Origin: Candidatus Levyibacteriota bacterium
GTDB taxonomy: Bacteria; Patescibacteriota; Microgenomatia; Levybacterales; UBA12049
Length of the DNA stretch: 64,000 nt
Reading direction: 5' to 3'
NCBI GenBank assembly: GCA_963716145.1
Contig: OY970292.1
Location: 533,171 to 597,170, forward strand
Below the pieces are notes generated by a model. It had not been told where the DNA came from, did no database searches, and worked only from the letters and a program-made list of their open reading frames with translations. The stretch's first letter is position 1; every line of letters starts with the position of its first letter. Shown here piece after piece: positions 7,729 through 44,505 of this stretch. The position numbers were made by a program, and so were the translations under genes.

Positions 7729-7905
7729 ATGGCGAAAAAAGGAGAACACAGAATAAAAATTGGTCTGGTTTGTCAGATTTGCAAGAATAAAAACTATGTG
7801 TCACAGAAAAATAAGATGGAGACACCTGAAAAATTGGTGCTTCATAAATTTTGTAAGCATTGCAAAAAAGTGACAGACCACAAAGAAACTGAAAAACTTA
7901 AGTAA
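7729..7905 (+). CDS. rpmG: 50S ribosomal protein L33
   Basis: 58-aa ORF, not in the track because it is under 60 aa: MAKKGEHRIKIGLVCQICKNKNYVSQKNKMETPEKLVLHKFCKHCKKVTDHKETEKLK. It has the CxxC...CxxC zinc ribbon and length typical of L33. Confidence 0.8.
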   Translation: MAKKGEHRIKIGLVCQICKNKNYVSQKNKMETPEKLVLHKFCKHCKKVTDHKETEKLK

Positions 7906-7937
7906 GATTGCGTATAGCAAATAGCTTATGGCGTATG

Positions 7938-7968
7938 GTAAGAATCCTTTCTTACTCTACGCTTTTTT
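7938..7968 (+). terminator. rho-independent terminator after rpmG
   Basis: Hairpin gtaagaa-tcctt-ttcttac followed by a T6 run. Confidence 0.5.
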
Positions 7969-8025
7969 AGTATAATGGGCTAACTATTTGCTATTAGCTA
8001 TTAGCTATGCGCTGTTAGCCAATAT

Positions 8026-8097
8026 AGGGACGTGGTGAAATGGTTATCACAGCAGTCTCCAAAACTGCTTTTCCCAGTTCGAGTCTGGGCGTCCCTG
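8026..8097 (+). tRNA. tRNA-Trp (anticodon CCA)
   Basis: Acceptor agggacg/cgtccct, D-stem gtga/tcac, anticodon loop ctccaaa, T-loop ttcgagt. Confidence 0.85.
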
Positions 8098-8150
8098 CAC
8101 ATCACAAATTAATATCTTGCATTTTTTAAAAAAAGTATTAATATATTATT

Positions 8151-8531
8151 GTGGGACATGACGCGCATCACGAACATCTCATAAAAGAACTGACAGAACA
8201 GCTGGAGCCTGTTTTTTCAAACTCTCCTCAGGGCATTTATCTATAACTTGATGATGAGCACAAATCCTGCAATAAGAAATTTGCTGATCTTCTCGGATAC
8301 AAATCAACTCAGGAATGGGTAGATAATCAATTCCCCATCGAAGACGTCGCTGAAGAAGACCAGGAAAAAGGAATTGAGGCATATATAAATGCGTCAACAA
8401 AGCTAATCGCTTCAACGTTTACAGGAAGCTTAGTGAGAAAAGACGGAAAGAAAATAAAAGCAGAAGTCACCATGGCCCCAATAACCTACAAAGGCGAAAT
8501 ATTTGTCCTCCACTTTATCTCCGAGAAGTAA
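8151..8531 (+). pseudogene. PAS-domain protein interrupted by an in-frame TAA at 8244-8246
   Basis: The frame starting at GTG 8151 reads HHEHLIKELTEQLEPVFSNSPQGIYL*LDDEHKSCNKKFADLLGYKSTQEW...KGEIFVLHFISEK. This is the PAS sensory-box pattern (GIYLxD...N.aFadLlGY) with a stop at a conserved hydrophobic position. Confidence 0.5.
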
Positions 8532-8609
8532 TAAGTTCCAACATAATTATTTAACTCCTGCCACAATTTCCCCTCTTGCAATTCTGATTTTTTCAGATAT
8601 ATAATCAAG

Positions 8610-9218: not shown

Positions 9219-9266
9219 AGTAGTCTCCAAACATTTCCCCTGTTATAATTTGCTATAATACAATTT

Positions 9267-10567: not shown

Positions 10568-11329
10568 GTGAAAATAATATTTTTAGGAACCAATGGCTGG
10601 TACTCATCCCCCACCGGAGACACACCTTGTATTTTAATTGACTCCGCCGACCACTATGTAATTCTCGATGCGGGAAATGGAATTTATAAAACAGATCAAT
10701 ATATAAAAGGGGGCAAACCTATTTCCTTGTTCATCTCCCATTTTCATCTTGATCACGTCTCAGGAATGCACATATTGAATAAATTTAGCTTTAAGCAAGG
10801 AATTGATGTCTATGTAGGAAAAGGACGAACTAAAGATTTTCAGACTCTTGTAAATCCCCCATTCACACTTGGATATCAGTCCAAACCCGGTAATAAACTC
10901 AACTTAAAAACAGAAATCAGGCTTCACGAACTGTCTGAGAAGGAAGAAAACATCCCATTTAAAGCACAAGCGCTCAAGCAAACCCATTTATTTGACGACC
11001 ATGGCTTCCGGATAGAGCTCGAAGGAAAAACTATCAGCTACACCGGAGACTGCGGGAGAACAGAGCAGGCAAGAAAACTTGCAAAAAACGCTGATCTTTT
11101 GATTTGCGACTGCACAAACAGGAAAAATTTAACTATTGATACCGGTCATATGGATCCTGTTGATGCGGCAACTCTGGCAAAAGAAGCTGGGGTTAAAAAA
11201 TTAATCCTCACCCATTTCCACCCTGTTACCTACTCAACTCTTGATGACCGTAAGTGGGCAGAGAATAAAGCAATGAAAATTTTCCCAGCGGCGACCGCCG
11301 CGACTGACGGGCTTGAAATAATTCTTTAG
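10568..11329 (+). CDS. MBL-fold metallo-hydrolase
   Basis: HxHxDH motif (HFHLDHVSG) with downstream His/Asp ligands. Short RNase Z / beta-lactamase fold. Confidence 0.7.
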   Translation: MKIIFLGTNGWYSSPTGDTPCILIDSADHYVILDAGNGIYKTDQYIKGGKPISLFISHFHLDHVSGMHILNKFSFKQGIDVYVGKGRTKDFQTLVNPPFTLGYQSKPGNKLNLKTEIRLHELSEKEENIPFKAQALKQTHLFDDHGFRIELEGKTISYTGDCGRTEQARKLAKNADLLICDCTNRKNLTIDTGHMDPVDAATLAKEAGVKKLILTHFHPVTYSTLDDRKWAENKAMKIFPAATAATDGLEIIL

Positions 11330-11369
11330 TCCTTGCAATTTATATAGCAAACATACTACAGTTATATTA

Positions 11370-12287
11370 ATGTCTATTCTAAATTGGATAAGAAACCACA
11401 AGCTTGCTACTATACTCCTTCTTATTGTCCTTTTTCTTCTCAGAAATTCTACCCCTGAACCACTGGGATCATCTTTAAGTTTTAGGGGAACACGGCAAAG
11501 CAGTTATGACGCAGTCTCCAATAATATGAGTGGCGCTACAACTGAAAAAGCTATGGCCCTTGAGATAGGAATGACTGCGCCATATCAACAGGTGAGTGAT
11601 AGCTCACAGCGCGTTGTTATAAAAGAATCAAGCCTCTCCCTTCTGGTCAAGAATGTCCGGGATACCGGTGACAAAATCATAAATACCGCAAAAGGAATGG
11701 GTGGGTATATGGTGAACGTGAGTTATAACAATCCCAGCGAGCAGGGCTTTGCAACTATAAGTGTCCGCGTACCGACTGACAAACTTGATGACGCGCTTAA
11801 TCAATTCCGCAGCTTTTCAGTAAAAGTTACAAATGAAAACTTGATAGGAACAGACGTTACGCAGGAATACCAGGATCTTGATCAGAGAACCGCTACTTTG
11901 AAGACAACCAAGGACAAATTTGATGAAATACTTAAAAAAGCAACAACTGTTAGTGAGATTCTTGAAGTTAACCGCGAGATCATAAGCCTTGAGCAGCAAA
12001 TTGACTCTGTAACCGGGCAAAAAATGGCAATAGCAGATAACGCCAAACTCACAAAAGTCACTCTCTATCTCTCAACCGATGAACTCGCTCTTCCCTACGC
12101 ACCGGACAAAGTCTTCCGGCCTGATGTAGTGCTCAAGCTCGCTGTACGCTCGCTTTTGGGAACAGTTCAATCGCTTGCGGAATTCTTGATCTGGTTTGGA
12201 GTCTACGCAATTATCTGGATACCACTTTTAATAATTATTATGATATTTAAAAACCGGAGAAAACGCTCAAAGGACCTAAGAAATTAA
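11370..12287 (+). CDS. membrane-anchored coiled-coil protein (DUF4349-like)
   Basis: N-terminal TM, central coiled-coil, C-terminal TM followed by a basic tail. Confidence 0.4.
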   Translation: MSILNWIRNHKLATILLLIVLFLLRNSTPEPLGSSLSFRGTRQSSYDAVSNNMSGATTEKAMALEIGMTAPYQQVSDSSQRVVIKESSLSLLVKNVRDTGDKIINTAKGMGGYMVNVSYNNPSEQGFATISVRVPTDKLDDALNQFRSFSVKVTNENLIGTDVTQEYQDLDQRTATLKTTKDKFDEILKKATTVSEILEVNREIISLEQQIDSVTGQKMAIADNAKLTKVTLYLSTDELALPYAPDKVFRPDVVLKLAVRSLLGTVQSLAEFLIWFGVYAIIWIPLLIIIMIFKNRRKRSKDLRN

Positions 12288-13970: not shown

Positions 13971-15200
13971 ATGAAATCCTTTAATAAAACTGTTGTTCTC
14001 GGGATAACCAGCGGGATTGCTGCTTACAAGTCACTAGAGTTAATAAAATTGCTAAAACAGGAGGGACTTGAAGTTTTTGTAATCATGACCAAAAGCGCCG
14101 CCTTGATGGTATCCCCAGCTGAATTTAAAAAAGCCTCAGGAAATGATGTTGCCATTGAACTATTCAAGGATAAATTTGATTACAAAGATGTCTTAAAATC
14201 AAGAAAAGTTGATCATATCGAGCTAGCTGACAGAGCTGATGTCATGATTATTTGCCCGGCAACTGCCAACGTAATCGCGAAAATCGCTTACGGAATAGCT
14301 GATGATTTCCTGACTACCACAGCGCTTGCTATCACCTCCCCTCTTATTATTTGTCCCTCAATGAATGTAAATATGTGGAACAATCCTTCTGTTGTTGAGA
14401 ATCTGGCTAAACTGAAAACCCAAGGAATACAAATTATTGAACCCACAGAAGGCATGCTTGCATGTGGTTATGAGGGAAAAGGCAGACTTGAAAATATAGC
14501 TGTGATTAAACAGGAAGTAATGAAACAAATAAACCGTAGCAGTTCACTTGCGGGAAAAAAAGTGATTGTAACAGCAGGTGGAACTCAGGAAAAAATTGAT
14601 GAGGTAAGATTTATAACCAACAAAAGCTCAGGAAAAATGGGGGTCGCGATTGCTGAGGAATGCTATCTTCGCGGGGCTGATGTTTTACTTCTCCGGGCTG
14701 AAAGTTCGGTCAAGCCACGTTATTTGATTCCTGAAAAAACCTTTATTACGGCTGCTGAATTACAAACTTTGGTCAAAGAGTATACTCCAGAATATAATAT
14801 TCTTTTCCACGTCGCGGCGGTATCTGATTTTTTGCCTGAAAAAATAACTAAAGGAAAAATCTCAAGCAAAAATATTGTTGCTCTAAAACTTAAACCCGCT
14901 CCCAAAATAGCTGACCAAATCAAAAAAATCAACCCAAAGATTAAGCTAATTGCGTTCAAAGCCGAATATGCACTAAGCGAGAAAGAGCTAATACGAGCTG
15001 CGCAGCACAAATTAAAAGAATGTGATGCTGATGCAATTATTGCCAATGATATAAGTAAACCCGACCGCGGTTTTGAGGCTGACACAAACGAGCTACAGGT
15101 TATTATAAAAAATGGCAAACAGCAAAAAATCCCTCTTAACTCCAAAAGGCAAGTAGCATCAGTTGCAATGGATTTTATTACTGAAGAATTAAATATCTAA
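13971..15200 (+). CDS. coaBC: bifunctional phosphopantothenoylcysteine decarboxylase / phosphopantothenate-cysteine ligase
   Basis: N-terminal flavoprotein motifs (GITSGIAAYK, PATANVIAKIAYGIADD) and a C-terminal CoaB/DFP domain. Confidence 0.9.
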   Translation: MKSFNKTVVLGITSGIAAYKSLELIKLLKQEGLEVFVIMTKSAALMVSPAEFKKASGNDVAIELFKDKFDYKDVLKSRKVDHIELADRADVMIICPATANVIAKIAYGIADDFLTTTALAITSPLIICPSMNVNMWNNPSVVENLAKLKTQGIQIIEPTEGMLACGYEGKGRLENIAVIKQEVMKQINRSSSLAGKKVIVTAGGTQEKIDEVRFITNKSSGKMGVAIAEECYLRGADVLLLRAESSVKPRYLIPEKTFITAAELQTLVKEYTPEYNILFHVAAVSDFLPEKITKGKISSKNIVALKLKPAPKIADQIKKINPKIKLIAFKAEYALSEKELIRAAQHKLKECDADAIIANDISKPDRGFEADTNELQVIIKNGKQQKIPLNSKRQVASVAMDFITEELNI

Positions 15201-15201
15201 G

Positions 15202-16038
15202 ATGAGTAGTGCAAAAGCATTCGCGCCTGCAAATATCAGCTGCGCTTTTAAGATTTATGAGCACAAAAATCCACGCTGGGCAGGCTCACTCGGATTTGGA
15301 TTTACTCTTAAAGAAGGAATAACTGTGGAAGTTACCAAATCAAAAACAAGCAAAGTTTTTTTTAATAAAAAGCAGGTCGATTTCCCGACAATAAGACAAG
15401 TTATAAATTCTTTGACAAAAGAGAAAATAGTTGTGAATCTAACTTCTCCCCTGCCTCTTGGCTGTGGGTTTGGCTTGAGCGGAGCAAGCGCGCTGGCAGC
15501 GTCTTACGCCTTAAATAAATTGTTGAAACTTGGTAAATCCAAAAAGCAGCTGGCTATTATTGCACACGTCGCGGAGGTTGAAAATAAAACCGGTTTGGGC
15601 GATGTAACAAATCAATATTACGGAGGTTTTTTGGTGAAATTCAAGCCCAGCTCACATTTTGAAGTTATCAAAATTCCGCTTAAGGATGTTCCAATTTTCT
15701 GCCTGAGCTTTGATAAACTACCTAATAACTCCATCCTTAACAATACAAGATTAACAGCTGATATAAATAGAGAAGCAGCAGTTGCATTGGGTAAAATGCA
15801 GGACTTGCTAAAATCAGGAGAGAAAGTGGAACTTGGATATATTATCAAGCTTTCAAAAGAATTTGCAATAAAATCAGGACTGCTTACAGATAAAAAAGTA
15901 ATTGAAACTATAGAGGCTATCGAAAAAGATAGTGGTCAGGCTTCAATGATAATGCTCGGAGATGCTGTATTCAGCAATATCAATTTCCCCGGCGCAAAGA
16001 GATTAACAATATCAGACCAGGGAGCGTATGTAATATAA
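15202..16038 (+). CDS. GHMP-family small-molecule kinase (candidate pantoate kinase)
   Basis: GHMP motif II PLGCGFGLSGASALAASYA and an N-terminal APANISCAF motif. 278 aa, overlapping the coaBC stop. Confidence 0.5.
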   Translation: MSSAKAFAPANISCAFKIYEHKNPRWAGSLGFGFTLKEGITVEVTKSKTSKVFFNKKQVDFPTIRQVINSLTKEKIVVNLTSPLPLGCGFGLSGASALAASYALNKLLKLGKSKKQLAIIAHVAEVENKTGLGDVTNQYYGGFLVKFKPSSHFEVIKIPLKDVPIFCLSFDKLPNNSILNNTRLTADINREAAVALGKMQDLLKSGEKVELGYIIKLSKEFAIKSGLLTDKKVIETIEAIEKDSGQASMIMLGDAVFSNINFPGAKRLTISDQGAYVI

Positions 16039-16064
16039 AAGCTTATCTATTCGTAAATATAATT

Positions 16065-16263
16065 TTGTGTGAGCATTCAAACAAGCGCGTTTACCCCGCT
16101 AAGCGGGGTTAAGAAATTGTGAATGAATTGTCAGGGGGAATCCGGCTCGAAGCTGAAAGCTGAGTGGCCGAAGGGGGCGGACAATCCCCCGACAATGAAT
16201 GAAACAATTTTAGCGCGACTTTGCAGCTCACAAGCTTTTGGTTCTTTTGTCGACACAAAAGAA
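16065..16263 (+). repeat. copy A of a conserved structured element (candidate small RNA)
   Basis: About 80% identity to 53549-53711 with two indels, and a compensated terminal hairpin (gttcttttgt-cgac-acaaaagaac). A TATAAT box sits at 16056-16061 just upstream. A long-range helix pairs ttgtcaggggg with cccccgacaa. Confidence 0.55.
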
Positions 16264-16293
16264 CAACCACAATCTGCTATAATCCATCTATTC

Positions 16294-17802
16294 ATGAAAC
16301 GGCAAATTTCAGCAACCATGGCCACGCAGCATCCTGACCATGCAGGTGTACCTTACTGGCATGACCGGGAATTCATAAGAACCAGTTACGAGTCGCACGA
16401 AACATTTGAGGCATTTTCTGAGCTTGGAATTCGCGAGTATAAATGGGACTGGGAGGGCAAACTTGTTGATGAATCGGTGCTTGAAAGATTGTTTGGGGAG
16501 CATTTTGAATTCTTTAAAAAAAACCCCTTGGGACAAAAAACATTTTTGACATTCAGACTCCCAAATCCCAAAGTCGAGACCGAATTCCGAATAGGTCGTG
16601 CTTTTATGAACCTAGCAAGTGCCGCAAGTGTCGCAAAGCATTTCGGGCTCCCTACTCCCCCGCTTTTTGAAGTGATTCTCCCCATGACCACATCAGCTGA
16701 GGAGATCTTTGAGATTCAAGTTGCCTATCAGCAAATTCACGCACTCACCCATCCTTTGTATCGCTTGAATAGTATTCTGACCAATCCCCGCATCATCCCA
16801 TTGTTTGAAGATGTTGAGACAATAATTAACTCTGACAAAATAATCGAAAAGTACATAAATCTTTATAAAAAACGGTTTAAAAAGACACCTCCATATATCC
16901 GCCCGTACGTTGCACGGAGTGATCCGGCTTTGAATTTCGGAATGGTACCTACAGTCTTTGCCATAAAAATTGCGCTATCAAGGTACGCAAAGTTGTCTAA
17001 GAAACTCAGGATTCCTTTTTATCCGATCATCGGAGCAGCTGTTCTTCCCTTCCGTGGAGGGATAGATCCAACGCGTATTGAGAAATTCGCTGATGAATAC
17101 AGAGGAATCCGCACAACCACAATTCAAAGTGCTTTCAGGTATGATTTTCCCAAAAAAGACGTTATAAAAGCCATAAAATATCTTGAAAAGACCCTCCCAC
17201 AACAAAAAGCGGAAATCATCCCAGCTAGCGAAGAAAATGAAATGATCAAGCTCATACCTTACTTTGAAAGTTCGTATCGCGAAACAATCGAAAAAATTGC
17301 ACCAGTAATAAATACTATTTCGGGTTTTTTACCCAGGCGCCGCGAAAGAGTCCAGCACATCGGACTTTTTGGATATTCAAGAGGAGTTGGTAAAGTAAAG
17401 CTACCGCGAGCAATTGGATTCACCGCAGCCCTTTATTCAATCGGCGTGCCTCCTGAATTCATAGGGACAGGAAGAGGCATAAAGCAAGCTAAAAAACTAG
17501 GTAAATTGGCAATCGTAAAAAAATATTATAAATATGTTTCAGAAGATCTGGATCAAGCAGGCAGATATCTAAATACTGATAATTTGAATAAACTGAGCAA
17601 GAAATCAAACGCTTGGAAAAAAGTATTGGAAGACATAAAGGCGGTCGAAGAAACATTGGGGATAAAACTCAGACCCATAACAAAAGAGGAAAAAGAACAC
17701 AAAAAACTTACTGATAAAATTTATGCGCAGCTGGATTCAGGAGACGTAATGCTCACCGAGCTAATCACCAAAGCCGCAATTCTCCGGAAAAGTTTGGGAT
17801 AA
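16294..17802 (+). CDS. archaeal-type phosphoenolpyruvate carboxylase (PepcA family)
   Basis: N-terminal MATQHPDHAG motif, GYSRGVGK (analogue of the classical GYSDSGK), and a C-terminal Gly. The start is moved to an in-frame ATG downstream of the repeat element; the track start at 16123 lies inside that element. Confidence 0.7.
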   Translation: MKRQISATMATQHPDHAGVPYWHDREFIRTSYESHETFEAFSELGIREYKWDWEGKLVDESVLERLFGEHFEFFKKNPLGQKTFLTFRLPNPKVETEFRIGRAFMNLASAASVAKHFGLPTPPLFEVILPMTTSAEEIFEIQVAYQQIHALTHPLYRLNSILTNPRIIPLFEDVETIINSDKIIEKYINLYKKRFKKTPPYIRPYVARSDPALNFGMVPTVFAIKIALSRYAKLSKKLRIPFYPIIGAAVLPFRGGIDPTRIEKFADEYRGIRTTTIQSAFRYDFPKKDVIKAIKYLEKTLPQQKAEIIPASEENEMIKLIPYFESSYRETIEKIAPVINTISGFLPRRRERVQHIGLFGYSRGVGKVKLPRAIGFTAALYSIGVPPEFIGTGRGIKQAKKLGKLAIVKKYYKYVSEDLDQAGRYLNTDNLNKLSKKSNAWKKVLEDIKAVEETLGIKLRPITKEEKEHKKLTDKIYAQLDSGDVMLTELITKAAILRKSLG

Positions 17803-23819: not shown

Positions 23820-23894
23820 CAAATATACTTAAACCCTTTCTCTGTTGTTGACAGATTGTACAAAATGTTGTACATTATAGATATGAGCAACTTT

Positions 23895-24134: not shown

Positions 24135-24135
24135 T

Positions 24136-33815: not shown

Positions 33816-33998
33816 ATGAGTTCACCTGTTAAATTTTTACGAGAAACATATAGTGAGTTACGGCAGGTTATCTGGCCAACCAGAGATGAAGTTATAAGGC
33901 TTACTTTGGTCGTAATCACCATCAGCGTTCTTGTAGGACTATATATTGGAGCACTTGATTACGCATTTACTAGTTTGATGGGAATAATACTTAAGTAA
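33816..33998 (+). CDS. secE: preprotein translocase subunit SecE
   Basis: 60 aa with a single C-terminal TM and the ETYSELRQVIWPTRDEV motif. Directly upstream of nusG. Confidence 0.7.
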   Translation: MSSPVKFLRETYSELRQVIWPTRDEVIRLTLVVITISVLVGLYIGALDYAFTSLMGIILK

Positions 33999-34775: not shown

Positions 34776-35060
34776 ATGAATTATACAAAAGAAATGCCTT
34801 CAAGAGCAGGTTCTAAGCAAGGAGTAATTAGAGCGTCTAGAGATAACCCTGGAAGCAAGGTTATTATAGAATGGAGTGTGGCCTTTGGAGGGGTTAGAAA
34901 AGCAGTAGGAGCAACAACTTTTAACCCTCGAGTATACACCGCAACAAGATCTTTGGATGGGACAATACCGGAAATAAGGGTAGTTGCTATTAACCCTGAT
35001 CACGCGCTTAAAAGGATTTCTTCTAAAAAATCAGCAGCAAGAAAAGTGGCATACGCATAG
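34776..35060 (+). CDS. small basic hypothetical protein inserted between nusG and rplK
   Basis: 94 aa with native codon usage. Starts 2 nt after the nusG stop. Confidence 0.45.
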
Positions 35061-35065: not shown

Positions 35066-35488
35066 ATGGCTAAGAAAATAAAAACACTTATAAAAATCGC
35101 ACTACCAGCAGGAGGGGCAACACCAGCGCCACCTGTCGGAACGGCATTGGGTCCGCACGGACTCAATATCATGGAATTTGTTAAAGCTTACAATGACAAA
35201 ACAGCCGAGCTTAAAGGCAATGTCATTCCGGTTGTGATAACAGTATATGAAGACAGGACATTTTCCTTCATCACCAAAAAACCCCCTGTTGCTGAGATGA
35301 TCAAAAAAGCAATGAGCGTTGAAAAAGGATCCCAGAAGCCGGGACGTGAAAAAATCGGCAAACTTACTATGGATCAGGCAAGGAAAATCGCAGAGGACAA
35401 AATGGAAGATCTCAACACAACAGATGTCGAAATGGGAGCAAGAATAGTCGCCGGAACAGCAAGAAGTATGGGGATTGATGTTAATTAA
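35066..35488 (+). CDS. rplK: 50S ribosomal protein L11
   Basis: [34 protein letters not shown], the canonical L11 sequence. Confidence 0.9.
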
Positions 35489-35557
35489 AAATGAAAACTA
35501 ATAACTTATTACTTATAACTTATAACTTGTCACTGTCGCGACTGAAGGGAGCGAACC

Positions 35558-36481
35558 GTGGGTAAAATAAGAGTTAAAACAATCGGAATTGAAGAAGACG
35601 AAAAAGATCAGAAGAAAAAGGCCAAAGCCAAAGCTGAAGCCAAGCGAATTGAAGCTGCAAAAAAACTCGGGGCAGATACAAAGGCGCAAGAGAGCAAAAG
35701 CGAAGAGGCGCAAAAACTTGCAAACACTGATACCGCAGATAAGTCCGCAAAAACACACGAAAGCAGTGACAGCGTAGTTCCGCGTTCGGTTTCGCGTAGT
35801 TCCGCGGACGAGAGCGAGGCGAAGTCTGCAAAAAAGCAGAGCAAATATAAAGCCAAAACCTCCAAAAAATCAAAACCTCATTCTAGCAATTACTTAACAA
35901 TGTCCAAACTTGTAGATAAAAATAAAAAGTACACAATTGACGAGGCATTGAAAATCCTAAATTCCGCCAACAAACTTAAATTCGATGAGACAATTGAGCT
36001 ACATATAAATACCAACGAAAAAGGCGTATCAGGGAATCTCACACTCCCCCACGGCACCGGCAAAAAAGCCAAAATTGAGATAGCAGATCATGCAACTGAC
36101 CCCAAACATCTTGAAGAACTAATCAAAAAAATCGAGGGCGGAAGTATTGATTTTGACATTCTCATCGCGACCCCTGATACGATGAGTCACTTGGCAAGAG
36201 TCGCGAGATTCCTAGGACCCAAGGGCTTGATGCCAAATCCCAAAAACGGAACGATAAGTCCCAAGCCTAAAGAAGCAATTAAAAAGTTTGAAGGCGGACA
36301 GATAAATTTCAAAACAGAAGCAAAAGCTCCTATCATCCATTTGAGCGTAGGTAAGCTTTCTTTTGGTGAAAAAGATCTGAATGCCAATATCACAACTGTT
36401 CTTCAAGCAGTCCAGACAAAAAATATAAAAAATGTAACTCTTAAATCAACAATGTCACCAGGTATTAAAATTTCTATTTAA
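35558..36481 (+). CDS. rplA: 50S ribosomal protein L1 with an approximately 114-aa Lys/Ala/Glu-rich N-terminal extension
   Basis: The canonical L1 domain begins at the in-frame Met at 35900 (MSKLVDKNKKYTIDEALKIL...GLMPNPKNGT). No stop lies between 35558 and 35900. Confidence 0.8.
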   Translation: MGKIRVKTIGIEEDEKDQKKKAKAKAEAKRIEAAKKLGADTKAQESKSEEAQKLANTDTADKSAKTHESSDSVVPRSVSRSSADESEAKSAKKQSKYKAKTSKKSKPHSSNYLTMSKLVDKNKKYTIDEALKILNSANKLKFDETIELHINTNEKGVSGNLTLPHGTGKKAKIEIADHATDPKHLEELIKKIEGGSIDFDILIATPDTMSHLARVARFLGPKGLMPNPKNGTISPKPKEAIKKFEGGQINFKTEAKAPIIHLSVGKLSFGEKDLNANITTVLQAVQTKNIKNVTLKSTMSPGIKISI

Positions 36482-36540
36482 TCTCTCCAAAATCCTCCAA
36501 CTTATTGACAACTCTTAGCTTTCTACGATAGAGTATTAAT

Positions 36541-36945
36541 GTGACTAATGGTAAAAAAATTATAATTGGCGGAATTTCTATCATCGCGCTGGTTATGCTT
36601 TTTGTCATTTTCGCGCCTTCATCATGGAAATTGCAAAAAAACAAACCATCCCTCAGCCCAACCCCCAACAATTGGCAGACCAATCCTTCAATTATTCCTG
36701 AATCAATGCAAGGCAAGGTTACTGCGTCTCTTTCAGCTGAATTAAAGGAGGTAGATAATTCAAATATTACAGGCGTTACAACATTTAAAGAAATTAATGG
36801 CAAGGTTTTTGTGGGGGTCGTACTTAAAGACGCATCGGCTGATACTGAATATCCGGCATATATCCATTACGGAACCTGTACTGAGCAAAAAGGTCCAAAT
36901 ATTCCCTCAGCCCGGTTGTCAAAGGAAAAACAGACAATTATATAA
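36541..36945 (+). CDS. small secreted protein, function unknown
   Basis: N-terminal TM or signal sequence. Faint beta-sandwich, SOD-like pattern (weak, not relied on). Confidence 0.35.
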   Translation: MTNGKKIIIGGISIIALVMLFVIFAPSSWKLQKNKPSLSPTPNNWQTNPSIIPESMQGKVTASLSAELKEVDNSNITGVTTFKEINGKVFVGVVLKDASADTEYPAYIHYGTCTEQKGPNIPSARLSKEKQTII

Positions 36946-37169
36946 ATACGACAGTTGCAGAATTTAAAAAAGAATTCCCGCTCTCTGTTAAAATCCACAA
37001 ATCTTCAGATGAGCAAGACGGATTGCTCAGCTGCGCTGATCTTAAATAATTCTGCGAAACCGCGTAGGCGGAAAAGCAGAACATCATTCGTATAAATGCT
37101 TTTTTCATTGATTTCCCGCTTTTTAAAATTTTGCTATACACCTAGCCTCAACAATCTGCATTGTGATAC

Positions 37170-37198
37170 TTGACATCTTATAGGGTATTTAATATACT
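37170..37198 (+). promoter_or_regulatory. near-consensus sigma70 promoter
   Basis: TTGACA, 17 nt, TATACT. Confidence 0.4.
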
Positions 37199-37750
37199 GT
37201 GTGGGATTCTTTGGAAGGTAAAGCTGAGAGTGCTTTTTTCGCGCTTTCACCCCAACCTTTTCCTGAAGAACGAAATCGGTAACTGAGATATGAAGGTCCA
37301 AACGCTGGACCAAATCATAACTCTTTTGCACTTTAAAAAACTAGGGATGTATTTTTTGCGTCCCGTAAGGATCATGAAATACTATGGACATCATCTATTA
37401 GCAGTTAAATGCTTTCAAATTTTTGTTGCGACCCATGCTCGCTTCTTCTCTTGTCCCGCGAAGCCTTTTGGCGAAGCGGGAAATCTCTCCGGTTATTTTC
37501 CTAAACTTTAAGCACTACTGTAATTTTGCTTATTTTTATAGGATAATTTATCGGAGAATTACATTCGGGATTGACATCCTACATTGGAGATAAATTATTT
37601 GTCTCCAGCGTTGGATGTCACATCCACCTAATTAGGGCAATTCTCACGGCGACCGCCGGCCCTAGCTTCCCCTAAAGGAGAGACTCGTCCTTACGACAAG
37701 GAGAGACTTTTTCGCAGGGAAAGTATGAGAGACAGACAAGGAGCAACACC

Positions 37751-38385
37751 ATGCAACGTCCATCCATCCGCCGAGGATTCGTGGCCGCTTTGGTCGCAAT
37801 TGGGATCGGTCTTACCACCGCCCCCGCCCCGGCGCTCGCCGACAACACCGACGTCAACGCCATCGTCGCCCAGGCCCGTGCCGACGCCACCACCCGTGTG
37901 GAAGCCGCTCTCGCAGCAGCCAACGCTCGTGTCGCAACCGTCGCCGCCCCGGCCCAGGCCGCCGACAACAACATCACGGCCACCCCGGCCAGCACCACCT
38001 CGGAGGCAACCGCCACCGAGTCCACCTACCAGGCACCCGCCGACACCGGCAACGCCAACAGCGGCACCGTCGAGGTCGCACCTGACCCCGTCGTCGCTTC
38101 GGCACCCGTCGTCGTCGAGGCAGCAGCTGTCGCTGTGGAGGCGCCGCCCCCGCCCCGGCCCTTGCCGTTTCGGCGCCTGTCGCACCCCTGGACTTCAACA
38201 TCCAGAACCCTGCCCAACCGGGGCAGAGGGTGCGCTTCGTGCGTTCCGAGGACGGGTCGTTCAGCGTGATCGCCACCAACAGGACCGGTTCGAACCAGTC
38301 CGCCCGCGTGTTCGCAGACCCCGTCTCGATCGGGATCGGCGTCCGCAACGGGAGCAAGAACTTCACCGGCGTCTTCAGCAGGTAG
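37751..38385 (+). pseudogene. high-GC (about 70%) Actinobacteria-like Ala/Pro-rich secreted protein gene, frameshifted
   Basis: AAGGAG ribosome-binding site 7 nt before the ATG. Signal peptide MQRPSIRRGFVAALVAIGIGLTTAPAPALA. GCC/GAC/ACC/GTC codon usage. The frame breaks in a C-run at about 38140-38165 and continues in another frame (DFNIQNPAQPGQRVRFVRSEDGSFSVIATN...) to the TAG at 38383-38385. Confidence 0.5.
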
Positions 38386-38958
38386 TCGCTTCACCAGGTG
38401 ATGCATCAAGGAAGGTTGACGGAATTTCTGTCTCAGGCCTCGGCTTGACTCAAGAGCTCGTCAGCTCCCCGCGATGCATCGCCTTTAGCTTTTAGCTTGC
38501 AAGGATGATCGTCCTCCTCCCTAGTTGGGAACTTTTTATGTGCCTAAAAAGCGCTAGTTCCCAACAGGGAGGGTGGATTCACTGATGTGGATTTTTCCTC
38601 GTAGAGGAGACATTTTCACATTTGTGATATTTTATTTTTTACGCGTTGCGGCTAAGCTGTTTCTGAGCAATTCGCGCTCCTTTTCACCGCTTACCGCGTA
38701 CCGTTACCCTATCCACCCTCCCTACTTCTATTTTGAGCCCCAATCAGACTTGGCGAAGCCTCGTTTGACGCGGGACTTAGAATAAAAGTATTTCATTATC
38801 TCAAAAATTACTCCTAAGCTCTGATTTATAACCACCATCTACTATCAGTACTTTGTTCCCGTTTGTAATTATTCTTATTTGCTTCTTAGCTGAAGATTTT
38901 TGACGTAGAAAAAACACCTTCATTGACATATAAGCTCCCCTATTTGTATAGTTAAATT

Positions 38959-39816
38959 GTGAGCAAAAAGTTTCTTCTAAACATTCTTACTGTTTCCATT
39001 TTATTTGTATCTGGTACCTTTTTGGTCTGGGCAGCAGCTAGCCCGAATGGGTGCGGAGGTAATGGCGGTACAGCCGGAGGCGTAGGCACCAAAGGATGCG
39101 ATAGCAGCTTCACAGGTTATAAAGGCGGCAACCCAGGCTCAGCAGGAGGAGGAAATGGGAATCCCGGTGGTAATGGATCTAATTTATCTGGGGATGCTGG
39201 TCAATATGGTGCTGGTGGGGGTGGGGGTGGAGGCGGAAGTGCTGGCGTTCGCGGTGGAAATGGAGGAATTGGTGGAAATTTTAATAACTTAGACGGTTTG
39301 GAGAGCGCTTCAGGCAACGGAGGACACGGAGGCTCGGGCGGTGCCTCTACTACCAATAGCGTCAGCGGTGGTGATGGTGGAACTGGAGGATTGGGAGGCA
39401 TTCTACAAAACGATAGCAACACCGGTAGCATAGGCGGAACGGGGGGTAATGGAGGGAAGGGAGGAGATACAGGCACAAGCGGGAGCGGAGCGGGTGTTGC
39501 CGGTGGTGCTGGAGGCGCCGGGGGAAATGGAGGAAATGTGTCAAAAGATACAGGGTTTGGTGTTACTACTTGGGGTAAGGGAGGAACTGGTGGCGTTGGG
39601 GGAAATGGAGGCGCTGGAGGCGATGCAAATGTGTCTGGGAACGGTGGTAATGGTGGTATAGGGGGAAAAGGAGGAAATGGTGGGAACGGAAAGACAAGTG
39701 GAGTTGGCTCCAACGGTGGGGTGGGGGGAAGTGGAGGAGATAGTTTTAGAGGGATTGGAGGAAACGGAGGAACCGGTGGAAATGGTGGCACTGGCTCAAC
39801 TGCAGGTACCCGGTAG
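38959..39816 (+). CDS. N-terminal segment of a giant surface protein: signal peptide plus Gly-rich (GGNGG/GGAGG) repeats
   Basis: TM or signal sequence MSKKFLLNILTVSILFVSGTFLVWA, then about 260 aa of GGxGG repeats. The Gly tract continues in other frames to about 40600. Confidence 0.5.
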   Translation: MSKKFLLNILTVSILFVSGTFLVWAAASPNGCGGNGGTAGGVGTKGCDSSFTGYKGGNPGSAGGGNGNPGGNGSNLSGDAGQYGAGGGGGGGGSAGVRGGNGGIGGNFNNLDGLESASGNGGHGGSGGASTTNSVSGGDGGTGGLGGILQNDSNTGSIGGTGGNGGKGGDTGTSGSGAGVAGGAGGAGGNGGNVSKDTGFGVTTWGKGGTGGVGGNGGAGGDANVSGNGGNGGIGGKGGNGGNGKTSGVGSNGGVGGSGGDSFRGIGGNGGTGGNGGTGSTAGTR

Positions 39817-40640
39817 CCCTGGCGGTGCCGGAGGAGAAGGTTGCGGTGGGCCCGGAGCAGTTGGTTCTCCCGCCTCAGGAAGTACCGGCGGTGCCGGAGG
39901 AGCTGGAGGACCAGTGTGTCTAAGCGGTGGTGCAGGTGGCACGGGTGGTATAAATGGCGGTGCCAGGAGGAGCTGGAGGACCAAAAAACGGCGCTGCCGG
40001 TGGCGCGGGTGGTACAGCCGGTGGAGGCGGTGGAGGCACGGGTCAACTTATAATTATGGGCGGAGGAGGTTCTACAAATTATGCTTATGGAGGAGGAGGT
40101 GGTGGAGGAGGCGCAGGGTACCAATGGTCTAGCTGGCGGTAAGGGTGGAAATGGTGGAGGTATGATAGTAGGTGGAGGAAGTTCTCTCAATTATATGGCA
40201 ACCGGGTCGGGTGGAGATGGAGGAGATGGAGGACATAATTCCAATGGTCCCGGTGGCAAAGGTGGAGACGGCGGGAGTGGTGGAGGTATAATAGGAGGTG
40301 GAGGAGGTTCTGTAAATCATGTATATCGTGGAGATGGGGGTAATGGCGGAAAAGGCGGGAACGGCACAGCCGGTCAGCCGGGTGGTGCTGGAGGAAATGG
40401 TGGATTTAGAAGTGGATACATTGTCGGCGGTGGAGGTAGCTCAAACTATTTTCATGTGGATGGAACTGATGGTGTAGGTGGTGCGGGAGGTGCTGGGTGC
40501 GGTGGCTTTGGTCAGCCTGCATCAGGCTCAACAGGTGGGGCTGGTGGCCCAGGATGCGAGGCGACCAACAGCAGCTTGCAGCAGCGGAAATGTCACCTGG
40601 AGTTGGACCGCCAGTACGAGTAGTCCCTCAACCCCAAATG
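39817..40640 (+). pseudogene. Gly-repeat region of the same gene, broken by at least 3 single-nt frameshifts
   Basis: Gly-rich translation hops between frames, for example ggtgccGgaggagct versus ggtgccAggaggagct at about 39965. The motif SPASGSTGGAGG(A)GGP(V)C recurs. Confidence 0.45.
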
Positions 40641-42265
40641 CACGACTTCAAGTTTTTGATAGCGCTGGAACAACTCTGTTATATGACAGTAACTCTGCTA
40701 TTGGTTCACCAAGAACCACCATTGGATTACCAGGAACTACCTTTAAAGGTCAAGTTAGCTACAACGGAACCAATCTTTACTCCGCACAAACCACTATTAC
40801 TTGCGCCGCAACACCAACATACTCCCTAACAGGCAGTATTTTTATCGATAGCAATGGAAATAATCTGAAAGATCCCGGAGAAAACCCTTACAATAGCTCC
40901 CAATTAAATGTCAGATTACGCAGTGGAGGCTCTACCTGGGATCAGGGCAACACTCCCGCTAACTATAATTATACCGGCCGTTCAGCCGGCGCGTATACCT
41001 TTGAGTTTTTATCGGCTATTCCGGCAGGATACACGCTGGGTCACCCCCCTGGTCCTCCATACCAGTATTCAGTTACTCTAGGTGCGGGATGCACGGCAAG
41101 CCCGCTGCCTCCCGGCAGTCCTGCCATCTGTGACGGATCAAATAACATAGTTGGTCTTAACTTTCCTCTTCAGGTTGTAGTCAGTCGTGTAACCACCACA
41201 ACTCTTTCTTCCTCACTCAATCCATCAACTGTCGGGCAAAATGTCACATTTACTTCAAATGTCAGTGGGGCTTGCGGGCCTACAGGAAATGTAGAATTTC
41301 TTGATGGGGCAGCAGTTATGGCAACAAGAGCATTGGCCGGAGCAACAGCCACATACTCAACTACCACCTTAACTGTCGGAAGTCACAATATTACGGCACG
41401 ATATACTGGCAATGCAGCTTGTGATCCAAGCACTTCCCCGGTTGTGGTCCAAACAATAAATCCCCCACCAAATCAAGCACCTACCATAAGCAACGCGACT
41501 ATTTCGCCCAAACCAATAACCGCAAATGGTTCAACACAATACGCAATAACCCTCACAGCAACCGACCCGAATGGCGGAAATGATATTGGAGCAGAATACA
41601 CAATCATCAACTATCAGGGCCCAAACGCAGGAGCTGGAAACTACCGAGGATATCTTGGATGGTCCACTCTGGGAGCTTCTCCGCCTCCTTATTCTTATCC
41701 CTACTGGACCTCTTCCATTTCTCCAAAACCCTGCGCGCCAGGTGGTGGCCAAGCGGCTGTCAATACCAGCGATGGCGCCACATGGGGACATCAATACATT
41801 AATTTGATAAGCTGTTCTACCGCAGTCGCGGGCAACATCAGGACAGTAACTTTTATTGTGACATTTAATAGTAACTTTACTGCGCCTACTAACAACAATA
41901 CTCTTTCCGGATATGTCCGGGATTGGGGAGGATTGGAAGATACTCCTATTATGAAACCATTTGACACGTTCAATTTGGCGCCGCCTGCAACTTACACAAT
42001 TTCAGGCAGTGTTTTTACTGATATAAGCGGAAATAAGATTAAAGATGGCAGTGAAATAGACTATCCAAGCTCTCCGGGCATAACAAAAAGCCCTGCCGGC
42101 GGAACTGTTACCAATAATGCAAACGGAACTTATAGCATTACTGGATTGTCTGCCGGAACTTACACTGTCTCCTATGGATCTGTCCCCGCAGGATACAATA
42201 TTGTTCATCCCCAAACAGGTCCGCCTCCCCAATTCTCAGTTACGGTTGGCCCGGATGCAGCGTGA
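40560..42265 (+). CDS. central part of the giant surface protein: SdrD-B / Cna-B-like and bacterial Ig-like (Big_3-like) domains
   Basis: Two SGS(I/V)F(I/T)D.NGN.IKD.GE motifs. Ig-like pattern TTTLSSSLNPSTVGQNVTFTSNVSG...GSHNITARYTGNAACDPSTS. The frame ends at the TGA at 42263. Confidence 0.55.
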
Positions 42266-43215
42266 ACCCCACTCCCCCAACAGCGGCCATAGCCTGTGAT
42301 GCTTCGCAAAACATTTCCGGCCTTAACTTCGCGATCAGTAATTCGTCTCCTTGGATACAGGGCTATGACTTGGATATGCGCTTTGATTATGGCTTTAATG
42401 ATGCTATCCCAGGCGGGACTCCATATACTCCCTACGCCTCAGTATTTGACACTTTTAGCAATACTCCTGGAGTTATTTTTTCAGGAGATAGCTCTTACAG
42501 CTTTGGATCGGGCCAAGCATCAATTACTAGGAGTGTTGTTGGGGGCACAACCTATCCTGAAGTTTTTAACTTCCCATCAGGCAACCCTCTGCACACAAGT
42601 TATGGATACTTATCAGGCAATGCCGCGAGTGCCGGAATAACTCCCAGAGATATGGCAGGAAATGATACTTCGGGAAATTCGGTCTGCAGCGGCGGCGGCA
42701 TTGGTAATTGCACTATCCATCCGAATTTACTAAAAGGTGTTTACGGCGCAAATGGAAATGTAAAAATAAACACATCTTCTCTAAAGGCTGCCAGCAATTA
42801 TATTTTCCTCATAAACGGAACTCTAACTATAAATGGAAATATAACTATTCCTACAACCTCAACAGCTCTTTTTACATCAAGCAGCAACATCATAATTGAC
42901 AAGTCCGTTGGAGCAGCAAGTAATTCATTCCCCCGTCCCACGGGACAATTGCAGGGATTCTATAGCGCTGACAATTCTTTTACTATCCAGGGAAACAATA
43001 ATTGCTCTCTCGGAATTGATAAAATGTTAAACATTGAAGGTTCTGTAGTTGTGAATGCCAACGGCACGGGAGGATCTGTTGTGAATCAGCGCAATCTTTG
43101 CGGTGATAATGCCACTATTCCTTCTCTTACGATCGCTCCCCGTCTTGATTTTATTCTCAATGCTCCATCATTTCTGATGGTACCTGATGTTATCTCCAAT
43201 GAAGTCGCACCATAG
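42262..43215 (+). CDS. C-terminal part of the giant surface protein (beta-helix-like repeats)
   Basis: Starts by repeating the PxxPxAAIACDxSxNIxGLNF motif seen upstream. Separated from the previous segment by a -1 frame shift. Confidence 0.45.
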   Translation: MNPTPPTAAIACDASQNISGLNFAISNSSPWIQGYDLDMRFDYGFNDAIPGGTPYTPYASVFDTFSNTPGVIFSGDSSYSFGSGQASITRSVVGGTTYPEVFNFPSGNPLHTSYGYLSGNAASAGITPRDMAGNDTSGNSVCSGGGIGNCTIHPNLLKGVYGANGNVKINTSSLKAASNYIFLINGTLTINGNITIPTTSTALFTSSSNIIIDKSVGAASNSFPRPTGQLQGFYSADNSFTIQGNNNCSLGIDKMLNIEGSVVVNANGTGGSVVNQRNLCGDNATIPSLTIAPRLDFILNAPSFLMVPDVISNEVAP

Positions 43216-43252
43216 TTCAGGATTAAAGATATACGATTAAAGATTAAAGAAT

Positions 43253-43272
43253 CCTGCCTGCCGGCAGGCAAG
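43253..43272. repeat. GC palindrome, copy 2
   Basis: cctgcctgccggcaggcaag, 38 nt after the giant surface-protein gene stop. Confidence 0.6.
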
Positions 43273-43446
43273 TCTTAAATCTTAAATCCCCCAACGTTCC
43301 TCTTTACAATACCTAACTCCCCTGTTATAATCTTCTTATCCTAAGAAATGGTCCTGCAAAGCAGAATTCGAAAGAATCTAGCAGCAGATAAAACATCAAA
43401 GCAGAATCATAAAGTATTCTTCTTTGAAGAACCCATGGAGGATCAT

Positions 43447-43992
43447 ATGCAAGACACATCAACTAAAGTCAGTTCAAACCGCCTCAAAAAAGAAGCTGTT
43501 GTTACAGAACTTTTGCAAAAGGTTGAAAAGGCGCAAGGATTGGTTTTTACAAACTACCAGGGCCTCACACATCAGCAAATCGAATCGCTCAAAAAAGCGC
43601 TAAAGTCGCTTGATGCTGAATATGTAAATACCAAGAACACTCTACTGCTCAGAGCCCTCAAAGATAAGCTTGACACTGAGGCGGAAAAAGATAAATTTCA
43701 GCAGCCTACAGCTACTCTTTTTATGTACAATGACATAGTTGAGCCTCTTAAGCAGCTTGCCAAAACACTTAAAGAGCTAGGTCTTCCAACAATCAAGTTC
43801 GGATTCCTGGAAGGAAAAGTTATGACTGATCAGGAAGTTGTAAAAATCTCCACTCTCCCTCCCCTTCCCGTACTTCGCGCTCAATTACTTGGCAATATGA
43901 AAGGGCCTATTTCAGGGCTGCACATAGCACTGTCGTGGAATATCAATAAACTTGTACTTACATTGAGGGCAATCGAAACTAAAAGGGGATAA
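43447..43992 (+). CDS. rplJ: 50S ribosomal protein L10
   Basis: L10 pattern (KAQGLVFTNYQGLT...LKDKL...). The start is moved to an internal ATG; the track ORF starts at 43348. Confidence 0.8.
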   Translation: MQDTSTKVSSNRLKKEAVVTELLQKVEKAQGLVFTNYQGLTHQQIESLKKALKSLDAEYVNTKNTLLLRALKDKLDTEAEKDKFQQPTATLFMYNDIVEPLKQLAKTLKELGLPTIKFGFLEGKVMTDQEVVKISTLPPLPVLRAQLLGNMKGPISGLHIALSWNINKLVLTLRAIETKRG

Positions 43993-44112
43993 TTGTCCAT
44001 TTTCCAGGCTTCATTTTCCATTGATTGATCAATTTACAAATTTTTTCAATCGAAAATAAATGGACAATGGCAAATGATAAATGGAAGATTACCTACTGGA
44101 AGGAGGTGTATT

Positions 44113-44505
44113 ATGGCAAAAATGAATAAAGACGATTTAATGAAATCAATCGAAGAGATGACGGTTCTTGAACTTTCAGATCTGGTTAAAGCACTTGAAG
44201 AAAAATTCGGAGTTTCAGCAGCAGCAATGGCTGTAGCAGCACCGGCCGCAGGAGCCGCTCCAGCAGGAGACAGCGCACCAGCTGAGGAGCAAACAGTCTT
44301 CAACGTTGTAATTGCGCAGTCAGGAGCACAAAAAATCGCTGTTATTAAAGCACTTCGTGAATTAGTCCCAACTCTTGGGCTTAAAGATGCGAAAGATTTA
44401 GTTGACGCAGCTCCAAAAGAAATAATGAACGGCGTAAACAAAAAAACAGCTGATGAGGCAAAAGAAAAGTTAACAGCAGCAGGCGCTACTGTTGAGTTAA
44501 AATAA
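44113..44505 (+). CDS. rplL: 50S ribosomal protein L7/L12
   Basis: [34 protein letters not shown]...AAGATVELK. Perfect AGGAGGTG ribosome-binding site. Confidence 0.9.

Follow-up and report, generated by a model that had tools for sequence, protein, structure and literature searches.

In loci of the Escherichia coli/Vibrio type, the genes of the canonical row tufB-secE-nusG-rplKAJL-rpoBC are divided into separate transcription units, namely secE-nusG, rplKA and rplJL-rpoBC. We analyzed this gene row in a stretch of 64,000 nucleotides (called the window in the following) of contig OY970292.1 from a Candidatus Levyibacteriota bacterium, in which the row is split. The window resembles the canonical locus in its genes, in their order and strand, in the tight gene pairs and in the promoter-like site and leader preceding rplJ. 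It also has the head of a locus of the canonical type, with tRNA-Thr, tRNA-Tyr and tRNA-Thr and then rpmG followed by tRNA-Trp, as in three outgroup genomes (L009, L011 and L013; loci used for comparison are numbered L001 and so on). In contrast to the canonical locus the window is without tuf and rpoBC, has gaps of 25.7 kb and 7 kb and carries an extra open reading frame (ORF) between nusG and rplK.

The rplKAJL-rpoBC locus has been called 'universally conserved', and in Bradyrhizobium diazoefficiens and Actinomyces israelii genes are present between rplKA and rplJL (10.1101/2025.04.14.645983). The interruption in these two species falls exactly at the rplA/rplJ boundary, as it does in the window. 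In the clade of the window, however, this boundary is variable (182-7,810 bp) and occupied by genes for surface or secreted proteins, and the linkages to rpoBC and rpmG are lost. We found no description of such an arrangement in the candidate phyla radiation (CPR)/Patescibacteria in the full-text literature searched, and the absence applies to that literature only. We would class the arrangement as a variant, common to the lineage, of a known cluster that has kept its units and lost its higher-order linkage and in which two insertion sites are used recurrently; the novelty left is the hot-spot behaviour of rplA/rplJ together with an orphan high-GC gene. The evidence presented below makes it very likely that the split row is an inherited trait of the lineage with recurrent insertion spots, and neither an assembly error nor a one-off event.

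Gene identities in the window were assigned with Pfam and those of the tRNAs with ARAGORN and Rfam, and ORFs were listed over the whole 64 kb. The genes rpmG, secE, nusG, rplK, rplA, rplJ and rplL are all present on the plus strand and in the canonical order (Pfam; Table 1). A preliminary description of this DNA had placed about 25.7 kb between rpmG with tRNA-Trp and secE-nusG, and an aminotransferase gene in place of rpoB behind rplL. Both statements hold, the distances being 25,717 bp from tRNA-Trp to secE and 39 nt from rplL to the aminotransferase gene. No match to rpoB or rpoC and no tuf gene or EF-Tu motif was found in the 64-kb window. Hence neither tuf, rpmG and tRNA-Trp directly 5′ of secE nor rpoB-rpoC directly 3′ of rplL is seen here, and rplKA and rplJL, for whose contiguity a few hundred bp with the rplJ promoter and leader would be expected, are 6,965 bp apart with three genes in between. 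One break goes beyond those listed in the preliminary description: tuf is gone between tRNA-Thr(GGU) and rpmG.

Comparison loci were collected in a scan with rplA/L1 using one genome per GTDB species. By L1 protein the nearest relatives are the Levyibacteriota metagenome-assembled genomes (MAGs) L002 (69% identity), L003 (66%) and L005 (63%), followed by a Shapirobacteria MAG (L006) and by more distant CPR and non-CPR genomes; the window genome is a Levybacteria-like member of the CPR (Microgenomates). In the four non-CPR outgroups fetched (L007, L009, L011 and L013) secE-nusG-rplK-rplA-rplJ-rplL-rpoB-rpoC is contiguous, and in three of them (L009, L011 and L013) tRNAs, tuf, rpmG and tRNA-Trp lie upstream of secE. 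This bears out the view that the gene row is among the most conserved in bacteria. The breaks had been considered unusual, which is true against bacteria at large but not within the lineage, where they are ordinary. A synteny comparison with relatives, named beforehand as the result that could overturn that view, found the same interruptions. Because relatives share them, the breaks are old and lineage-typical and not three unusual events.

The interruption between rpmG and secE can be followed through several of these relatives. The minus-strand genes for an FMN reductase, a small ORF, PAP2 and an NTP-transferase, which precede secE at 30.2-32.7 kb of the window, are also found 5′ of secE in L002 and L003, and the NTP-transferase gene is upstream of secE in more distant loci as well (L057, L060, L065, L068 and L078). 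In three loci rpmG and secE are 2.8-5.4 kb apart, with the NTP-transferase and PAP2 genes (L057, L085) or the NTP-transferase gene without PAP2 (L078) between them. Six further loci were anchored on rpmG homologs 63-90% identical to that of the window (L015, L016, L018, L019, L084 and L086). They retain rpmG with tRNA-Trp and the Thr/Tyr tRNA set and are without tuf, and no secE is present within 10 kb downstream of their rpmG. In no relative is rpmG directly joined to secE. Since the relatives share the upstream context of secE as well as an unlinked rpmG, the interruption is old in the clade; it began small and reached 25.7 kb in the window genome.

The three tRNAs at the left end of the cluster are the remnant head of the ancestral tRNA-tuf-rpmG cluster. 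The same Thr/Tyr/Thr set adjoins rpmG in the relatives L016 and L018 and in the outgroups L009 and L011, and tRNA-Tyr with tRNA-Thr(GGU) only is seen in one relative (L019) and one outgroup (L013). The transporter gene between the tRNAs and rpmG sits in the slot held by tuf in outgroups: L009, L011 and L013 have an EF-Tu G1 motif between tRNA-Thr and rpmG, and the Levybacteria-like rpmG loci have none. Homologs of rpmG number 70 and are annotated mostly as Levybacteria or Patescibacteria; an exact look-up of the window rpmG product gave no exact match on record.

The loss of rpoB behind rplL is equally widespread. Of the clade loci, 30 have 1.5 kb or more of sequence behind rplL and 20 of these have 4 kb or more; rpoB was found there in none, and the same rpoB and rpoC queries matched all four outgroups as a positive control. 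An ortholog of the aminotransferase lies 4.2 kb downstream of rplL in L003, and the genes found further downstream in the window (hexokinase, GalT, WecG and PEGA) recur downstream of rplL in many relatives. Outside the Levybacteria-like loci rplL is followed by WecG in Shapirobacteria (L006) and by tgt in Berkelbacteria (L010) and in an unclassified MAG (L008).

At the rplA/rplJ boundary the gap ranges from 182 to 7,810 bp across the 27 clade loci with both genes; in L006, L024, L045, L057, L081 and L083 it is 182-345 bp. The cargo varies, and among the six loci with inserts listed it is often a protein with a signal peptide. Two genes of the window insert are shared with relatives. A homolog of the small membrane-anchored or secreted ORF (164 amino acids) lies directly after rplA in L003, and the window copy has native codon usage. 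The large surface-protein gene encodes a signal peptide, glycine-rich GGxGG repeats, an Ig domain (Pfam Big_3_5, 1e-18), an SdrD_B-like domain (5.9e-9), the repeat families D1-D7 and a conserved C-terminal domain, and its GC content at third codon positions (GC3) of 0.35-0.37 is host-like. Its counterpart in L003 is an uninterrupted ORF of 963 amino acids with a signal peptide, GGxGG repeats, a Pro/Thr linker, Big_3_5 and the C-terminal domain. The C-terminal 317 amino acids (window 42262-43215) are 54-57% identical to L003 and L021, and in the latter, a metagenome contig that is closest to the window by rplJ (76%), the same gene lies directly upstream of rplJ. The gap had been put down as 6.8 kb of foreign or repetitive DNA. 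The gap itself is real (6,965 bp), but its content is mostly native and only about 0.85 kb is compositionally foreign. The raised GC content at 39.0-40.6 kb was considered as a sign of foreign DNA and rejected, the GC3 being host-like and the GC stemming from GGN glycine codons. A microRNA-model match at 43238-43285, the only one obtained with Rfam at relaxed thresholds over 33.3-44.6 kb, is spurious; it appears on two strands and is due to the palindrome listed in Table 1.

In one of the nearest relatives (L002) a toxin-antitoxin-like cassette of about 0.9 kb, with a gene for an AbiEii-family toxin and a small upstream ORF, lies between two copies of the 3′ end of rplA, which form a direct repeat of 144 bp with 95% identity (10743-10886 and 11772-11915). 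This repeat is the direct footprint of an integration at the rplA/rplJ site. No rplJ or rplL was found within the next 9 kb of the L002 contig past the cassette. The cassette resembles islets of the tRNA/transfer-messenger RNA type, which integrate at 3′ ends and duplicate their target; the GC island of the window is like them in being foreign and absent from relatives, but differs from them in that the window is without an integrase, flanking repeats or a duplicated rplA end. We conclude that insertions have repeatedly used the rplA/rplJ site and that what they brought there is not the same in all sub-lineages.

The genes downstream of this site stay together as a unit. Starts of rplJ and rplL were chosen by alignment to L003, and the gap between the two genes is 13-281 nt in 60 relatives. 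With the Rfam L10_leader model (RF00557), matches that exceed the gathering threshold adjoin rplJ on its 5′ side in L028, L029, L034 and L038, in the last two of these downstream of inserts of about 2.5-2.9 kb. Since a strict regular expression had picked up the leader in no more than 9 of 56 loci, we used a looser motif scan and a covariance model, R1, which has a 47-position core built from 20 relatives. Compensatory double changes occur in four of the five pairs of the R1 main stem, 99% of the cells are paired as compared with 27-56% when the partner strand is slid, and none of 500 shuffles reached the observed score. In 54 loci, among them L003 and L020/L021, the R1 core immediately precedes rplJ, whether an insertion lies in front of it or not. 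In the upstream sequences listed a box of the TTTACA-17-TATAAT type is typically located about 10 nt upstream of the leader core. Thus rplJL is a self-contained module of promoter, leader and genes throughout the clade. In L058 two rplJ-rplL copies are found in convergent inverted orientation (1872-4543), each with its own R1 match (1872-1916 on the plus strand and 4499-4543 on the minus strand).

In relatives, four with a score above threshold and 54 with the core helix, the leader is like the L10 leader RF00557, and the window shares with them the promoter and the 5′ motif. The promoter and UCCUAAGAAAUGG have the same spacing as in L003, L020 and L021, which score with R1. In contrast to RF00557, the variable hairpin in the window leader is expanded to an insert of about 81 nt, the terminator stem is absent, the 3′ partner strand is reduced to 4 bp (CCAU) adjoining the GGAGG of the Shine-Dalgarno (SD) sequence, to which it is fused, and the score is below threshold. 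The window leader was not filed as an L10 leader, since R1 missed it. It is probably a derived version of the L10 leader, and in the window organism the promoter would be in use and L10/L12 autoregulation may operate.

At the nusG/rplK boundary the preliminary description had counted an extra small gene as a further break of the row. The ORF is there; it does not, however, separate the genes physically, being packed between them with spacers of 2 nt (nusG to orf94) and 5 nt (orf94 to rplK). We regard orf94 as a lineage-specific small ORF embedded in a secE-nusG-rplKA operon. There is no Pfam match to orf94, and an exhaustive HMMER scan of 1.8 billion representatives returned only the protein itself and, at 4e-7 to 3e-4, weak matches to three large repeat proteins. 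P0072, the best match, has Big_1/Invasin_D3 Ig-like repeats, and P0074 is rich in fn3. The codon log-odds of orf94 (0.27) equal the mean of 26 confident host genes and its GC3 is 0.26. An AlphaFold2 single-sequence model had a mean pLDDT (predicted local distance difference test) of 42 and was unusable. The same spacer holds a PD-(D/E)XK GxxExxY gene in L002 and an unrelated 72-amino-acid ORF in L003, which gave no BLASTP alignment with orf94; between the spacers of the window, L002 and L003 there is no DNA similarity, though the flanking proteins are 85-91% identical. In slightly more distant relatives nusG lies about 10 nt from rplK without a leader, and in the next clade out inserts of 1.1-3.9 kb are found. 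Gaps within the other pairs are small, with 65-188 nt between secE and nusG in 16 relatives, and rplK-rplA stays tight across the clade loci. The promoter-like site preceding secE lies 42 nt 5′ of the gene.

Where nusG and rplK are parted by 1-4 kb, a motif GAGGGAGAAAC(N6-13)GUUUCGAA follows a promoter-like box 5′ of rplK (L059, L060, L068, L070 and L078). This element is a candidate L1-binding rplK leader. NusG of the window has an acidic N-terminal extension of about 55 amino acids. The rplA product begins with a Lys/Glu/Ala-rich extension of about 135 amino acids (window 35558-35960), and extensions of about 100-135 amino acids are present across L002-L005 and L010. Their start, MGKIRVKT.G.E..E, is conserved in the Levybacteria-like loci; in Berkelbacteria (L010) the extension is acidic and Lys-rich and has a different start.

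The part of the rplA-rplJ insert that is specific to the window lies between the small ORF and the surface-protein gene. In blastn comparisons L003 11162-11387 aligns with window 36780-37004 and L003 11571-11621 with window 38918-38969, and in L003 a spacer of about 180 bp separates the two flanking genes, about 140 bp of it without a counterpart in the window. Outside the GC island the small ORFs of 37050-38918 have non-coding-like scores. The island itself (37651-38500, about 0.85 kb) reaches a GC content of 72% compared with 41.5% for the window, and its GC3 of 0.78-0.89, set against 0.27-0.45 in host genes, marks it as foreign in composition. A third-position GC signal of 0.77-0.93 runs through it with one phase switch near 38140-38200, corresponding to one frame change. 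Because this signal is so clear we take the island to be real coding sequence from a high-GC background. The reconstructed product has about 210 amino acids, with a signal-peptide-like N-terminus, an Ala/Thr/Pro-rich middle part and a C-terminal domain of about 70 amino acids. No homolog of this orphan protein, searched with all 210 or with the C-terminal 72 amino acids alone, was found in 5.8 billion proteins and no Pfam match was obtained; there was likewise no tblastn match in the 83 loci fetched up to then, and no blastn match of 37050-38958 in plasmid or phage collections. Neither a donor homolog nor mobility genes nor significant flanking repeats were found for the islet at 37651-38500. 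An 18-nt inverted repeat bracketing the window-specific stretch (36996/38885) was not used, as its 15 complementary positions of 18 are within chance expectation.

About 130 nt past the stop of the orphan gene there is an imperfect 22-nt inverted repeat with a 22-nt loop (38512-38577, 77% complementary), which may serve as a terminator or mark a boundary of the inserted stretch. Elsewhere in the window three small ORFs of 71-102 amino acids on the minus strand (54047-54852) have 54-56% GC and a GC3 of 0.56-0.64, against 0.27-0.45 in host genes, and may represent a second, more ameliorated foreign islet.

Taking these results together, an ancient row of the order tRNA-tuf-rpmG-tRNATrp-secE-nusG-rplKAJL-rpoBC has very probably been drawn apart by gene insertions in this lineage, tuf and rpoBC having been lost or moved elsewhere. 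Its breaks would lie at unit boundaries, so that rpmG with the tRNAs, secE-nusG-rplK-rplA and rplJ-rplL were kept intact, in order and on one strand. The breaks between rpmG and secE and between rplL and rpoB would predate the divergence of all sampled relatives, and the rplA/rplJ cargo of a small secreted ORF and a glycine-rich Ig-domain surface protein would be common to the window and its closest relatives. More recent gains of the window genome would be the 1.9-kb stretch with the 70% GC orphan gene and the private 94-amino-acid ORF between nusG and rplK. Insertions at rplA/rplJ would be tolerated since rplJL is autonomous, with its own promoter and L10-binding leader whatever lies upstream. 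In slow-growing CPR cells the selection that keeps rpoBC linked to the row may have been relaxed.

Several points weigh against this account. The CPR outside the Levybacteria-like clade is thinly sampled, with L006, L008 and L010 only. The window leader is unscored both by RF00557 (43200-43480) and by the clade model R1 at E≤10, and all that can be made out in it by eye is the promoter, the 5′ 13-mer and a complementary 3′ segment of 4 bp. Promoter calls are consensus matches only, 29 being found where 16.4 are expected. Because nusG abuts rplK without a leader in close relatives, nusG/rplK was not a pre-existing unit boundary in the sub-lineage, and a rule that allows insertion only at boundaries leaves out orf94. 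Finally, the contig L001, which is used below as a second assembly, may stem from the same sample as the window and is then not fully independent.

This Logan contig of 4.2 kb (L001, from ERR11593400) is 99.88% identical to window 35144-39344 and spans rplK, rplA, the small ORF, the GC island with both flanks and the start of the glycine-rich gene; the orphan gene and both its junctions are thus present in a second assembly. It differs from the window by three 1-base indels, two of them in homopolymer length, and by two substitutions beside the third indel. One of these indels, a 1-base deletion near 36895 in the window, shortens the small ORF to 134 amino acids; in L001 it is intact with 169 amino acids and matches L003 to its end. 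The indel pattern and the size of the source contig (more than 1 Mb) suggest a long-read assembly with residual indel errors.

The alternative that survives best takes the surface-protein gene, the small ORF and the GC-island gene for true pseudogenes, or for contingency genes subject to phase variation, and the insert for decaying cargo. Frame changes are indeed numerous: in tblastn the 963-amino-acid ORF of L003 tiles window 38959-43212 in the frames 1>2>3>1>2>1, which makes five changes for the surface-protein gene within 4.3 kb, near 39.81, 39.96, 40.12, 40.57 and 42.26 kb. One change each is found in the GC-island gene, near 38.15 kb, and in the small ORF, near 36.89 kb. The GC-island gene is out of frame in both assemblies, and the G-rich repeats could slip. 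On the other side the frameshift of the small ORF is absent from L001, all differences between the window and L001 are 1-base run-length changes or adjoin one, as is typical of long-read consensus errors, there are no in-frame stops except those resulting from the shifts, and the similarity to L003 runs through all segments of the surface-protein gene. We therefore think that decay or phase variation is possible but rather unlikely; for the frame changes of the surface-protein gene residual sequencing indels appear to be roughly twice as probable.

A more far-reaching idea is that rplA/rplJ, and more weakly nusG/rplK, serves as a dedicated landing pad where genes for secreted or surface proteins and defence cassettes repeatedly come to lie by strong ribosomal-protein promoters; the un-ameliorated 70% GC orphan gene for a secreted protein would then have been acquired very recently from a partner or host organism of high GC content. 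We consider this speculative and improbable. If it were true, the sequence of the orphan gene would offer a way to trace the host of this episymbiont lineage.

It is also quite improbable, and slightly more so, that the breaks are recent and specific to this genome, having arisen by mobile-element insertions or rearrangements in the strain. Features of this kind do exist, as orf94 and 37050-38918 with the GC island are unique to the window genome among the loci and databases searched, a Phd/ParE pair lies within the 25.7-kb block, and the contents of the nusG-rplK and rplA-rplJ spacers vary among close relatives. The four main junction contexts are, however, common to relatives with 39-76% rplJ identity, the codon usage of the cargo is native, and no transposase, integrase, flanking direct repeats or duplicated rplA end was found in the inserts of the window. 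With the junctions shared, the codon usage native and no signs of mobility, only the latest layer (about 1.9 kb and orf94) is strain-specific.

That the contig is mis-joined at 36.5-37.6 kb, at 43.2 kb or at both, with the high-GC piece as a contaminant, can practically be dismissed: the abrupt GC rise from about 40% to 72% at 37.65-38.5 kb and the homopolymer-type indels and many frame changes, which suggest noisy long-read data, stand against a separately assembled contig (L001) that reproduces rplK through to the start of the glycine-rich gene and so contradicts chimerism at the left site, a left junction of rplA and small ORF that is the same in L003, a right junction of the surface-protein C-terminal domain with the rplJ promoter and leader that is the same in L003 and L021 and speaks against chimerism at 43.2 kb, the native codon usage of the cargo genes, and a foreign piece of 0.85 kb that has native sequence on both sides, unlike a chimeric join.

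The 25.7-kb block itself holds genes of varied families (Pfam), among them MIP, DUF2000, MBL, DUF4349, coaBC, a GHMP kinase, an archaeal-type PEP carboxylase, CMAS, the Phd/ParE toxin-antitoxin pair, guaA, ACPS, an AMP-binding/ACP/acyltransferase fusion, FMN reductase, PAP2 and an NTP transferase. Within window 13971-17802 coaBC is directly followed by the GHMP-family kinase (15202-16038) and the archaeal-type PEP carboxylase (PEPcase_2, 7e-141), and the coaBC-adjacent kinase and PEPcase_2 form archaeal-flavoured metabolic genes within the block. The type II toxin-antitoxin pair (Phd/YefM-ParE, 23856-24384) lies between an FAD-binding gene and guaA. In the closest relative by rpmG (L015, 90%) the flanks are as in the window: the cluster is bordered by an ABC transporter gene at one end and by MIP, CMAS and FAD_binding_4 at the other. 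Relative to these shared flanks the tRNA/rpmG cluster of L015 (9625-10409) is rearranged and inverted; it has the order tRNA-Trp, tRNA-Thr(GGU), rpmG, tRNA-Thr(UGU), tRNA-Tyr, and MIP and the ABC transporter are encoded on the other strand.

Table 1. Position of the cluster genes, inserted genes and predicted signals in the 64-kb window
Feature	Position	Strand	Evidence or remark
tRNA-Thr(UGU), tRNA-Tyr(GUA), tRNA-Thr(GGU)	6001-6431	+	ARAGORN, Rfam
MFS transporter gene	6445-7650	-	Pfam MFS_1, 3.5e-20
rpmG (ribosomal protein L33)	7729-7905	+	Pfam Ribosomal_L33, 1.4e-16
tRNA-Trp(CCA), last element of the left piece	8026-8098	+	ARAGORN, Rfam
Block of about 25 unrelated genes, 25.7 kb	8099-33744	both	Pfam
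Promoter-like site TTTACA-17-TACAAT with TG	33745-33773	+	consensus scan, 10 of 12 matches; consensus match only
secE	33816-33998	+	Pfam SecE, 2.1e-19
nusG	34090-34773	+	Pfam NusG, 5.1e-30, and KOW
orf94 (94 amino acids), between nusG and rplK	34776-35060	+	ORF listing
rplK	35066-35488	+	Pfam Ribosomal_L11_N, L11
rplA (307 amino acids)	35558-36481	+	Pfam Ribosomal_L1 on residues 137-301
Promoter-like site upstream of small ORF	36505-36534		consensus scan
Small membrane-anchored or secreted ORF	36541-37049	+	intact copy in L001, homolog in L003
Window-specific stretch of about 1.9 kb, absent from L003	37050-38918		blastn of L003 against window
Promoter-like site upstream of high-GC gene	37571-37598		consensus scan
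High-GC orphan gene	37751-38385	+	GC 60-72%, SD AAGGAG
Promoter-like site upstream of surface-protein gene, conserved with L003	38923-38952		consensus scan
Large surface-protein gene, about 1,420 codons	38959-43215	+	tblastn with 963-amino-acid ORF of L003
Perfect G+C-rich palindromic hairpin, terminator-like, between surface-protein gene and rplJ promoter	43253-43272		scan
rplJ promoter-like site TTTACA-17-TATAAT with TG	43303-43331	+	consensus, 11 of 12 matches
rplJ leader, about 115 nt	to 43446	+	5′ motif UCCUAAGAAAUGG; CCAUGGAGG fused to SD
rplJ (ORF 43348-43992, likely true start 43447)	43447-43992	+	Pfam Ribosomal_L10; SD GGAGG
rplL (likely start)	44113-44505	+	Pfam Ribosomal_L12_N, L12
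Class-V aminotransferase gene, at the rpoB position of other phyla	44545-45660	+	Pfam Aminotran_5, 1.4e-26

For genome work on Patescibacteria the inherited nature of the split means that gaps in this cluster are unfit as a flag for misassembly of MAGs, and that within the clade the hypervariable spacer between rplA and rplJ can be of use as a marker. The high-GC islet is a candidate clue to transfer between phyla. For the organisms themselves the finding means that a CPR clade keeps the small units of the cluster and drops the higher-order linkage, including that to rpoBC. The real constraint thus lies on the secE-nusG, rplKA and rplJL pairs and on the rplJ promoter and leader, the rest being dispensable in these small, presumably slow-growing cells.

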